The notes under the pieces were generated by a model that was not told where the DNA came from, made no database searches, and worked only from the letters and a program-made list of their open reading frames with translations. A program made the translations under genes and the position numbers. Positions 4,625 through 6,763 of a stretch of 64,000 nucleotides of DNA are shown here, one piece after another. Position 1 is the first letter of the stretch. The number at the start of each line of letters is the position of its first letter. The stretch is from Promethearchaeota archaeon (lineage in GTDB: Archaea; Asgardarchaeota; Lokiarchaeia; Sigyniarchaeales; SOKP01), in NCBI GenBank assembly GCA_019058245.1, contig JAHPZJ010000030.1, positions 32,001-96,000 on the forward strand. Reading direction: 5' to 3'.

Positions 4625-4751
4625 ATAAAATCTTGCTATTTACAATTTTATCATCGCTTTTAATAAATTAAATGAAAAGTAATCATATTCATATTTCATT
4701 AAGTTTATTATATACATTTTTTTTAAGCTTTTGATTAAAAAAAGAAATAAT

Positions 4752-4825
4752 AATCCCAAAACCCATGCAAGGTCGTCATTGAATGTCTCATTTTTTTCAC
4801 ATTCATTTCATTCTTATTTGGGATT
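4752..4825 (-). promoter_or_regulatory. Candidate eukaryote-type SECIS element in 3' UTR of the UxxU gene
   Basis: Minus strand: AUGA(4811-4808)-N10-AA-N18-GA. Stem UGAAUGU/ACAUUCA, A-rich apical loop, 3' core UGAC (4778-4775), basal helix AAUCCCAAA/UUUGGGAUU. Confidence 0.65.
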
Positions 4826-5338
4826 TATAATATATTTATCAATCAGAATGATCATTGCACCTACAGAAGGCCTATCGGTTTTATCTCTTCCTACATATTT
4901 CCAAATTATTTTTCTGTTTTTGTCAAGGAGGAATTTGCTTGGTATTGCTTGTTTTACTTTTAGTTTTCCCCAACCTTCAGCAAACCAATACACATTATAA
5001 TCTTTAGCGATTTTTGCTCCACGATCTGAAATCATATCTATAGGAAATTTATTTTCTTCCTTGAATTTTTTTAGTAGTCCAAGAGAATCAGTAGCTATTG
5101 AAATAATCTTAATATTTCTTTTCTCAAATTCATGAAATTGCTTTGTTAAACGCTCTAATTCTTCCTTTCAGTAGCTTCACCACGTCCCCCGAAAAAAATC
5201 AATCAATACTCCATTATGAATTTTAAGTAATTCATCTAAATCCACTGGTTTTCCGTATATATCAAAAGATTTTATTAGTGGTCCTTGTGAATTCAGTGGT
5301 AATCCTTTTGGTCTTGTAGTACTATTATCAGTCGTCAT
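4814..5338 (-). CDS. Peroxiredoxin-like (AhpC/TSA, redoxin) selenoprotein with UxxU motif, 174 aa
   Basis: ATG at 5338 is in frame with the 73-aa track ORF. The only internal stops are TGA codons 54 and 57 (5179-5177, 5170-5168) in DFFRGTW-U-SY-U-KEEL, matching FxRGxWCPxC. Downstream ISD and PSKFLLDK..IIW are thioredoxin-fold motifs. Confidence 0.88.
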
Positions 5339-5464: not shown

Positions 5465-5989
5465 CTAGTGTGAATACTTTTCAAAAAGAATTTCTGTCAT
5501 TACATTAAAAGCTTTCTCGACATTCTCTCCTGTTTTAGAAGATAATTCTACAAAAGAAGCAAGATTGTATTTTTTTGCGGCTAATATTCCATCATCTCGC
5601 GATACTGCACGGAAATCATGCAAATCTACTTTCGAACCAATTAACATTATAGGTATTTCTCCTGCATGTTCTCTTATTACTTGAGTCCAATCAGGTAAAT
5701 GATCTAATGATGTTTGATTAGTGATATCGTATAGGAAAAATGCCCCATTTGCACCTTTACTATATTGAGAAAGTAAAAAGCGAAATCGTTCTTCTCCACC
5801 AAAATCCCATATTTGTAATTTGACTTTCTTATCCTTGAAGGAGGTGGTCTTACTATAAAAATCTACTCCAATTGTTAATTTGAGGTCTTCCATAAAATAT
5901 CCAGAGATATATCTCATAGTAAGGGATGTCTTTCCTACAGATGCATCACCAAGCATCATAATTTTAAATGTATAATCGTAATTCGTCAT
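5465..5989 (-). CDS. Rab-like small GTPase
   Basis: GDASVGKT, TIGVDF, WDFGGEERF, SKVD, LSSK. Confidence 0.93.
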   Translation of the reverse strand: MTNYDYTFKIMMLGDASVGKTSLTMRYISGYFMEDLKLTIGVDFYSKTTSFKDKKVKLQIWDFGGEERFRFLLSQYSKGANGAFFLYDITNQTSLDHLPDWTQVIREHAGEIPIMLIGSKVDLHDFRAVSRDDGILAAKKYNLASFVELSSKTGENVEKAFNVMTEILFEKYSH

Positions 5990-6121: not shown

Positions 6122-6763
6122 TTAAATTAGTAAAATAAGGATATTAAAGCAAGAATGGGCAATTGAACAAGGAATTATAGAATATTCGAAATACACAAAT
6201 ATAAGAGAAAGTAACACTCCAAATACTAAATAGTATCCAGAATATGTAATAATTGTTGTTATAGGCACTAGAATTGGTGGAACATGATAAAGTGTAAAAA
6301 TTAGAGATGATAGAAAAATACTGAAAATTAAATTTAATTTAGTTTCGAATTTTTTAATAAGAAATCCTCTGAAAAAAGCTTCTTCACACGGTCCAATAAT
6401 AAGTATATTTAAAATTATGATGATTACCATTTGAATAATATTAGGATGAATTGGTTCTGTGCTAATAGCTCCTTTTTGACCAAGTTCGACAAAACCAGAA
6501 CCAAACAGATTTGTAATAATAATATCCTTGAAAAATATAATGATATAACTACCAAAAAAGAAAAATAATATTCCAAGACCCAATCCGGTGATTATTTTTA
6601 TTAATAAATTTTCATTCTCACGAAAACCCATATCCTTTATAATTTCTTGAAATGATCTCTTTTCCAATTTACTGAATATTAAAGCGGGAATGATTACAAA
6701 CATTAATTCCAAAAATGTTAACCCGATTAAAATCCAAGGATTTTCTCCTAATTGTATAACCAT
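6122..6763 (-). CDS. CPBP/CAAX-family intramembrane metalloprotease
   Basis: EEAFFRG, FTLYH and HSCFN motifs; multiple TM helices. Confidence 0.9.
   Translation of the reverse strand: MVIQLGENPWILIGLTFLELMFVIIPALIFSKLEKRSFQEIIKDMGFRENENLLIKIITGLGLGILFFFFGSYIIIFFKDIIITNLFGSGFVELGQKGAISTEPIHPNIIQMVIIIILNILIIGPCEEAFFRGFLIKKFETKLNLIFSIFLSSLIFTLYHVPPILVPITTIITYSGYYLVFGVLLSLIFVYFEYSIIPCSIAHSCFNILILLI

Follow-up and report, generated by a model that had tools for sequence, protein, structure and literature searches.

A probable double-selenocysteine gene of the PrxL.1 type, with a lokiSECIS-like element in its 3' untranslated region, in a Lokiarchaeial genome

The window analysed here is a stretch of 64,000 nucleotides from a Promethearchaeota archaeon placed in the Sigyniarchaeales of the Lokiarchaeia (assembly GCA_019058245.1, contig JAHPZJ010000030.1, positions 32,001 to 96,000). 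On its minus strand lies a gene for a peroxiredoxin-like (Prx-like) protein, here called prxL, followed by a 3' untranslated region (3' UTR) with a candidate selenocysteine insertion sequence (SECIS) element (Table 1). The frame runs from an ATG at 5338-5336 to a TAA at 4816-4814 and has 174 sense codons; the only stops within it are the TGAs at codons 54 and 57, and with selenocysteine (Sec, U) at both it reads ...FFRGTW-U-SY-U-KEELERL. An initial annotation, made from the letters of the sequence, had proposed at 4814-5338 a hidden selenoprotein without Cys codons, whose sole internal stops are two TGAs at both Cys positions of the redoxin active site, of which the list of open reading frames gives just the last 73 amino acids, and which is followed by a SECIS-like element. 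Translation and a codon count (no Cys codon in the frame) bear out the location, the two TGAs and the lack of Cys, the strand being minus; translated on the plus strand, the same interval gives no frame. Calling open reading frames with translation table 11 yields only a 53-residue N-terminal piece (5177..5338) and the 73-residue piece, which starts at Met102 (4814..5035), and the SECIS-like element was found 3' of the gene, from AUGA at 4811-4808 to GA at 4777-4776.

With C substituted for U, the translated protein matches the Pfam families AhpC-TSA (PF00578; residues 22-146, E 6e-23, 81.5 bits) and Redoxin (PF08534; residues 28-162, E 3e-18, 66.4 bits), both over the cut-off. As the AhpC-TSA match covers both TGA positions, a single domain bridges them. 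The AlphaFold2 model, made with 35 homologues, has a predicted local distance difference test (pLDDT) score of 90.9 and places U54 immediately before the helix formed by residues 55-66 and U57 in the first turn of that helix, which is the geometry of a thioredoxin-type CxxC box. The top Foldseek match of the model is Sulfolobus Bcp4 (3hjp; template modelling score, TM, 0.83), followed by PrxQ, AhpE and ResA, with sequence identities of 17-24%. The nearest curated families are, in order of score, the SelL-related redox proteins, ResA and thiol peroxidase, all far under their cut-offs; the best NCBIfam match is NF040769, 'SelL-related redox protein', at 55.4 bits against a cut-off of 120, and AhpC-TSA_2 (PF13911) reaches 24.7 bits against 27. 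Membership in the SelL-related, PrxU and ResA families was rejected on these scores. What the protein does have is what defines PrxL, namely an AhpC/TSA-Redoxin domain, a UxxU box, no Cys elsewhere and, shortly after the stop codon, a lokiSECIS.

When 60 related genomes were searched with read-through, most congeners proved to have close homologues, comprising five orthologues with two TGAs at 70-76% identity and a larger group with one TGA at 57-66% identity. Across the 36 PrxL relatives that were extracted and aligned, the first site is TGA in all (36/36), and the second is TGA in 13/36 and Cys in 23/36. This agrees with the expectation of the initial annotation that homologues would carry U or C at the active-site positions and be conserved on both sides of them, as both flanks are strongly conserved and the pattern DFFRG[TN]W-U-x-x-[UC]-K is nearly invariant. 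The box reads USYU, UTYU or USFU in the orthologue clade and USHC in its sister clade, and none of the UxxU orthologues has a Cys codon (0 in 7/7). In the maximum-likelihood tree of the 36 sequences the window protein falls in a clade of seven UxxU proteins (support 99/95), which is nested beside the USHC clade. Two clades further away likewise include UxxU boxes, and at least 2-3 changes between Sec and Cys at the second site are needed on this tree.

In four congeners (loci L006, L007, L008 and L015, from genomes G036, G008, G007 and G022) a UxxC (USHC) paralogue immediately precedes the UxxU gene; both genes of these tandem pairs have a SECIS of their own. Only the UxxU copy is seen in the window genome, as also in G009 and G016. 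Beyond the congeners, C-terminal fragments from the LCGC14 (Loki's Castle) marine sediment metagenome are around 63% identical to the window protein, and the bacterial homologues found are just 27-29% identical. Close homologues at four loci (L057, L058, L062 and L063) come from metagenome-assembled genomes labelled Odinarchaeota or Hermodarchaeota, one with a best segment that is 93% identical, and the remaining relatives are labelled Promethearchaeota or Lokiarchaeota; the names of these records look at odds with the relationships of the genes.

Comparison of the window gene with six orthologues gave ratios of non-synonymous to synonymous change (dN/dS) of 0.19-0.46 upstream of the first TGA, 0.06-0.20 between the second TGA and Met102, and 0.03-0.07 downstream of Met102. 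For the whole gene dN/dS is 0.09-0.15, with dS ranging from 0.8 to >2. No relaxation of selection is therefore seen around the TGAs, as the dN/dS values to either side of them lie well below 1. All of the genes compared (7/7), in which synonymous sites are near saturation, have retained both TGAs. The feature as a whole is far beyond chance.

The putative SECIS element begins directly behind the stop codon. Its helix II has a stem of nine positions, of which eight are standard pairs and one is A.A, and the same stem appears in the minimum free energy (MFE) fold; the apical loop, GAAAAAAAUGAG, is A-rich and ends in AG, which fits the description given by Mariotti et al. (2016). In the 24 PrxL 3' ends that were aligned, the UGA of the core is invariant and its leading A nearly so, and the tail of the core is GA in 23/24 and AA in the remaining one. 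The apical loop has 11 nt in 18/24, the window copy having one extra base. Double compensatory changes are found in 7/9 pairs of helix II, with 88% of cells paired across the 24 sequences, and the observed covariation score was reached by 0/500 shuffles; RNAalifold recovers the same helix. The T-rich tract of the window, a probable transcription stop, has a counterpart in columns 101-115 of the alignment in most of the 24 homologues. The MFE z-score of the 3' UTR is -0.87, which is unremarkable, so that the case for a structure rests on covariation and not on energy.

Genes for most of the Sec machinery are present in the assembly (G000), which amounts to 3.09 Mb in 31 contigs and is 76% complete. 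SepSecS is found over its cut-off (472.7 bits; C14:82758-84059), and 4.5 kb away lies a GTPase of 480 amino acids that is the best selB match (236 bits; C14:77365-78255, minus strand) and carries PF21440, aSelB_III; the next EF-Tu paralogue scores 73 bits. A KTI12-type kinase of 269 amino acids has selen_PSTK as its best NCBIfam model, matched over the full model length (E 1e-41) but under the cut-off, and is referred to as PSTK-like. On the intact genome neither the Rfam model RF01852 nor ARAGORN reports a tRNA-Sec, two sub-threshold matches being tRNA-Gly and tRNA-Ser, because the gene is split by two inserts. It was found by blastn with the genes of congeners, 78 nt upstream of SepSecS (C14:82523-82680, plus strand), with an insert of 34 nt in the D-loop (82540-82573) and one of 30 nt in the T-loop (82633-82662). 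After in silico removal of both, ARAGORN recognises a tRNA-SeC(tca) of 93 nt in the 9/4 fold. A clear tRNA-Sec of 89-93 nt is present in 18/30 congeners. In Lokiarchaeota, a 31-nt intron in the T-loop of tRNA-Sec has been published, as has an EFsec gene around 6 kb upstream on the other strand.

The initial annotation had named tRNA-Sec, SelB, PSTK, SepSecS and SelD as the machinery to be confirmed; SepSecS, SelB, a PSTK-like gene and the split tRNA-Sec were found, and selD was not. In the 76%-complete assembly the selD model TIGR00476 gave only weak matches of the AIR-synthase family. Two tandem selD genes, each with one in-frame TGA, occur in 12/12 congeners searched (e.g., L040-L042), and the gap in the window genome is presumably due to incompleteness of the assembly or an unassembled region.

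The locus is thus very probably an intact gene for a PrxL.1-type protein of the peroxiredoxin/thioredoxin fold, in which both UGAs would be decoded as Sec. Such decoding would be carried out by tRNA-Sec and an archaeal SelB, directed by the eukaryote-like lokiSECIS in the 3' UTR. A pseudogene, that is, a former CxxC redoxin that has taken two nonsense mutations and expresses at most a tail of 73 amino acids, is very improbable. Standard gene calling does return fragments only, and the failure to find selD would agree with such decay, but both TGAs stand in 7/7 orthologues at near-saturated synonymous change with dN/dS <0.5 upstream of them, every relative has TGA at the first site, a covarying SECIS follows the gene and Sec machinery is encoded. 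The pseudogene was accordingly rejected on the kept TGAs and on dN/dS. Scarcely more credible is a reading of UGA as Trp, Gly or Cys, through a changed code or SECIS-independent read-through, which would give a protein without selenium. Some public gene callers have indeed used table 4 on the homologues, giving WWSYW, whereas in this genome TGA ends 222/1580 long frames (14%), and these frames, if read through, close after a median of 8.5 codons, the same as the TAA and TAG controls. The genes for SepSecS, SelB and PSTK have no internal stops. Trp53, which adjoins the first TGA, is itself encoded by TGG, both TGAs occupy the catalytic CxxC positions, and the genome has genes for a dedicated tRNA-SeC(tca), SelB and SepSecS. 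Elsewhere in the genome TGA acts as an ordinary stop and the code is unchanged, and a change of the genetic code was rejected on these stop statistics.

Several points nonetheless weigh against double Sec decoding. The tRNA-Sec needs two non-canonical inserts to be spliced out, and only the one in the T-loop has a published precedent; selD was not recovered, as described above. At the gathering threshold, no Rfam family matched anywhere in the window, although this is in line with the published observation that standard SECIS tools miss lokiSECIS (Mariotti et al., 2016, main text; PMC4989117). The apical loop has 12 nt instead of the published 11, and the stem includes one A.A mismatch. The evidence for Sec decoding is comparative and comes from sequence throughout, and what is said below of a diselenide, of the substrate and of the parts played by U54 and U57 in catalysis is inferred rather than observed.

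With both UGAs decoded as Sec, the W-U-x-x-U box would be placed where an alpha-helix starts, like the W-C-x-x-C box of thioredoxin-type proteins. Because relatives have nothing but Sec at position 54, and either Sec or Cys at position 57, U54 is the likely nucleophile that attacks and U57 the residue that probably resolves. A diselenol and an intramolecular diselenide would then be the two states of the redox cycle, and the UxxC paralogues would form a selenenylsulfide when oxidised. The most likely role would be the reduction of an oxidised substrate, either a peroxide or a disulfide/sulfenate, with recycling by a thioredoxin-type system.

The opposite assignment, in which U57 attacks a peroxide and U54 resolves, as in a true peroxidase of the BCP/PrxQ type, would involve the same gene and the same Sec decoding, and is considered unlikely but not negligible. 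BCP/PrxQ proteins give the best matches in both sequence (Aeropyrum BCP, 2cx3, 2e-13) and fold (3hjp, TM 0.83), and in the alignment with 2cx3 U57 falls on the peroxidatic Cys, with U54 on the Ser of SxxC. In addition, D105-R106 is invariant and lies roughly at the place of the Prx catalytic Arg, a likeness judged by eye only. The peroxiredoxin motif P-x-x-x-T/S-x-x-C is, however, absent, as FFPAAFSPVC of 2cx3 corresponds to FFRGTWUSYU here, with Arg50 in place of Pro and U54 in place of Thr/Ser. The site that is always Sec is 54, and 57 is Cys in 23/36 relatives, which points to the residue at 54 as the main nucleophile. A W-C-x-x-C context is, moreover, that of thioredoxin and ResA, both Sec residues of GTWUSYU aligning with the CxxC of ResA GTWCxxC (4nmu), and the class named in the literature is that of Prx-like thiol:disulfide oxidoreductases. 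Given the missing peroxiredoxin motif and the CxxC-type alignment, the window protein is placed in the 'Prx-like' class with a thioredoxin-style redox box.

The SECIS hairpin appears to be one part of a larger structure. Both the unconstrained MFE fold and RNAalifold give a three-helix architecture, in which a small side hairpin (helix III) and a basal helix I join helix II. The 5' strand of helix I is formed by the last sense codons of prxL, so that helix I encloses the stop codon. In helix I, pair 27/92 changes twice from C-G to U-A, at the third codon position of the Pro. The sequence of the helix is kept as non-coding RNA in the UxxC gene of G022, where the coding sequence ends earlier, and is replaced by unrelated but complementary sequences in PrxL genes that are more distant and in further selenoprotein genes of the genome. 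Helix III has a nearly invariant CC/GG core and a closing pair with two double changes, and analogous side hairpins occur in other SECIS candidates of the window genome. Among the eight SECIS-like elements of the genome, the window's included, six have the same three-helix architecture with unrelated basal-helix sequences. A loose constrained-fold test for the junction was passed by 25/31 real elements, but also by 29% of shuffled flanks, and no weight is placed on it.

In four orthologues (G034, G029, G025 and G013) the UAA has become a sense codon, and it is the UGA within the core AUGA that terminates the frame (L016:1408-1524, L018:1408-1524, L019:1411-1527 and L022:1408-1524, all minus strand). 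In those four mRNAs, UGA would be read as Sec upstream and as a stop inside the signal.

These observations allow the tentative suggestion, to which slightly less than even weight is given, that the prxL SECIS is a three-helix, k-junction-like element with a kink-turn core (AUGA/GA) bearing the A-rich hairpin, a side hairpin on the non-bulged strand and the stop codon inside. If so, a terminating ribosome would have to melt the base of the SECIS, which would point to a coupling between Sec insertion and termination; the conservation of N-P-K/N at the C-terminus would also be accounted for. A full-text literature search found no three-way junction for Asgard SECIS, and the main texts of the key lokiSECIS papers mention no third helix. 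An extended SECIS architecture, if confirmed, bears on how SECIS elements are recognised in Asgard archaea without SBP2.

Table 1. Positions of prxL, the parts of its 3' RNA structure and the neighbouring genes in the window.
Feature	Position	Strand	Remarks
prxL (PrxL.1 type) coding sequence	4814..5338	minus	174 codons + TAA, with both TGAs read as Sec (predicted)
UGA codon 54, putative first Sec of redox box	5177..5179	minus	N-terminal Cys position of thioredoxin-type W-C-x-x-C
UGA codon 57, putative second Sec of redox box	5168..5170	minus	peroxidatic-Cys position of BCP/PrxQ
AUGA of SECIS core	4808..4811	minus	2 nt behind the stop codon; corresponds to feature 1 of the lokiSECIS in Mariotti 2016
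SECIS helix II	4778..4807	minus	arms 4807-4799 / 4786-4778; 12-nt apical loop at 4798-4787
GA of SECIS core	4776..4777	minus	3' half of the presumed G.A/A.G quartet
Helix III, small side hairpin ACCUUGCAUGGGU	4761..4773	minus	between GA and basal helix; MFE fold and RNAalifold
Basal helix I, 3' strand UUUGGGAUU	4752..4760	minus	complementary to 4825-4817
Basal helix I, 5' strand AAUCCCAAA	4817..4825	minus	last three sense codons, Asn-Pro-Lys
T-rich tract, probable archaeal transcription stop	4735..4751	minus	directly after the RNA structure
Ras/Rab-family small GTPase	5465-5989	minus	Pfam Ras 2e-47; 126 nt upstream of prxL
CPBP/Rce1-like protease	6122-6763	minus	beyond the GTPase gene

The order Rce1-like protease, Ras-family GTPase and prxL recurs among the homologous loci, with the GTPase upstream of prxL on the same strand in 31/31 and the protease in 25/31. 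Because these loci come from close relatives within the genus, the synteny says little about function.

Outside the window, a pattern scan of the genome gave seven further lokiSECIS-like elements, each pairing at 8-9 of the 9 stem positions and standing immediately 3' of a frame that contains TGA (C10:-60085, C10:-58290, C13:-146168, C27:+41928, C27:+42395, C17:+91139 and C28:-244030). Two of the scanned frames are MvhD/VhuD-like, each with two in-frame TGAs in the coding part; two are paralogues with adjacent Sec-Sec (HADUUADV and SGCUUEKV); and three are small, membrane-like TGA frames (GGUGC, VVSUGE and LMAUGT).

The initial annotation had also anticipated that standard pipelines would lose the gene, and the public records reflect this. 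PrxL proteins are deposited either as 'peroxiredoxin' fragments of 105-117 amino acids that start after the redox box or as table-4 translations, the 'full-length' entries (proteins P0002-P0037) carrying Trp at the Sec sites, as WWSYW or WWSHC. As a result, sequence searches misrepresent the active site of PrxL, and prxL is an example of Asgard selenoproteins being lost in annotation pipelines. Proteins with UxxU are rare, and the window PrxL offers a strongly conserved and confidently modelled target for studying how a natural redox box of the diselenide type works in a strict anaerobe.

The protein type, the UxxU motif and the RNA signal were already described in 2016 for Loki-type Asgard archaea, so that the present finding is a rediscovery. 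The main text of Mariotti et al. (2016; PMC4989117) presents Lokiarchaeota PrxL.1, in which both Cys of the redox box are replaced by Sec, no Cys occurs elsewhere and a lokiSECIS follows the stop, and PrxL.2, in which one redox-box Cys is replaced (UxxC); a diselenide was proposed there for PrxL.1, and a comparison with SelL was made. The lokiSECIS is described in the same text as lying near the stop and made up of AUGA, a stem of 9 bp, a loop of 11 nt that starts with A's and ends in (A)G, and GA. Prx-like selenoproteins were later reported in 43% of Sec-using Asgard archaea (Huang et al., 2024, main text; PMC11227280), and a 2026 review lists a 'Prx-like thiol:disulfide oxidoreductase', PF00578, with UxxC or UxxU and 1~2 Sec (PMC13188914). 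Bacterial UxxC Prx-like selenoproteins, as well as UxxU variants from ocean metagenomes, were known by 2008 (Zhang and Gladyshev; PMC2398784). The reading of the initial annotation as a UxxU diselenide selenoprotein is therefore supported, but its novelty was overstated, as it equals PrxL.1 of Mariotti et al. (2016), and the very low redox potential that it proposed is conjectural. The remaining value of the locus lies in its putative diselenide chemistry, in the extended architecture of its SECIS and, for the genome, in a tRNA-Sec gene split twice; it represents no new kind of system.

Set against known systems, the window protein is closest to Lokiarchaeota PrxL.1, with which it shares the Prx-like domain, the UxxU box, the lack of other Cys, a lokiSECIS near the stop and a Lokiarchaeial host that is probably Sec-using; a UxxC paralogue (PrxL.2 type) is likewise present in its relatives. 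It is another species' copy, with 70-76% identity to its nearest orthologues in genomes that represent species in the Genome Taxonomy Database (GTDB), the published PrxL.1 having been compared by description only. It differs in its apical loop of 12 nt, against 11, and in that the window genome shows the UxxU copy alone. The RNA element likewise agrees with lokiSECIS and with the Asgard type I eSECIS-like element in the AUGA, the stem of nine positions, the A-rich loop ending in AG and the GA, all after the stop; unlike lokiSECIS as published in main texts, the hairpin here and in 23 homologous 3' ends would form one arm of a three-helix junction.

The bacterial 'Prx-like 1' (UxxC) and 'Prx-like 2' (UxxU variants) proteins have the same pfam00578-type fold, and in them, too, the first Cys of the box is Sec. 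In these bacterial genes the SECIS lies inside the coding region, whereas here a eukaryote-like SECIS stands in the 3' UTR. In contrast to BCP/PrxQ (3hjp, 2cx3, 4gqf), whose overall fold is alike and whose peroxidatic Cys corresponds to U57, PxxxT/SxxC is missing, and in comparison with ResA/TlpA (4nmu, 1st9) both Sec align with the CxxC of ResA, with Sec replacing both Cys here. Animal SelL (Shchedrina et al., 2007, as cited in PMC4989117) is likewise a Prx-like protein of the thioredoxin fold with a UxxU box and a proposed diselenide. In SelL, as described in that source, and presumably also in prxL, one SECIS in the 3' UTR serves two UGAs separated by two codons, but on scores the window protein is not a member of the SelL family (55.4 vs 120 for NF040769; 24.7 vs 27 for PF13911).

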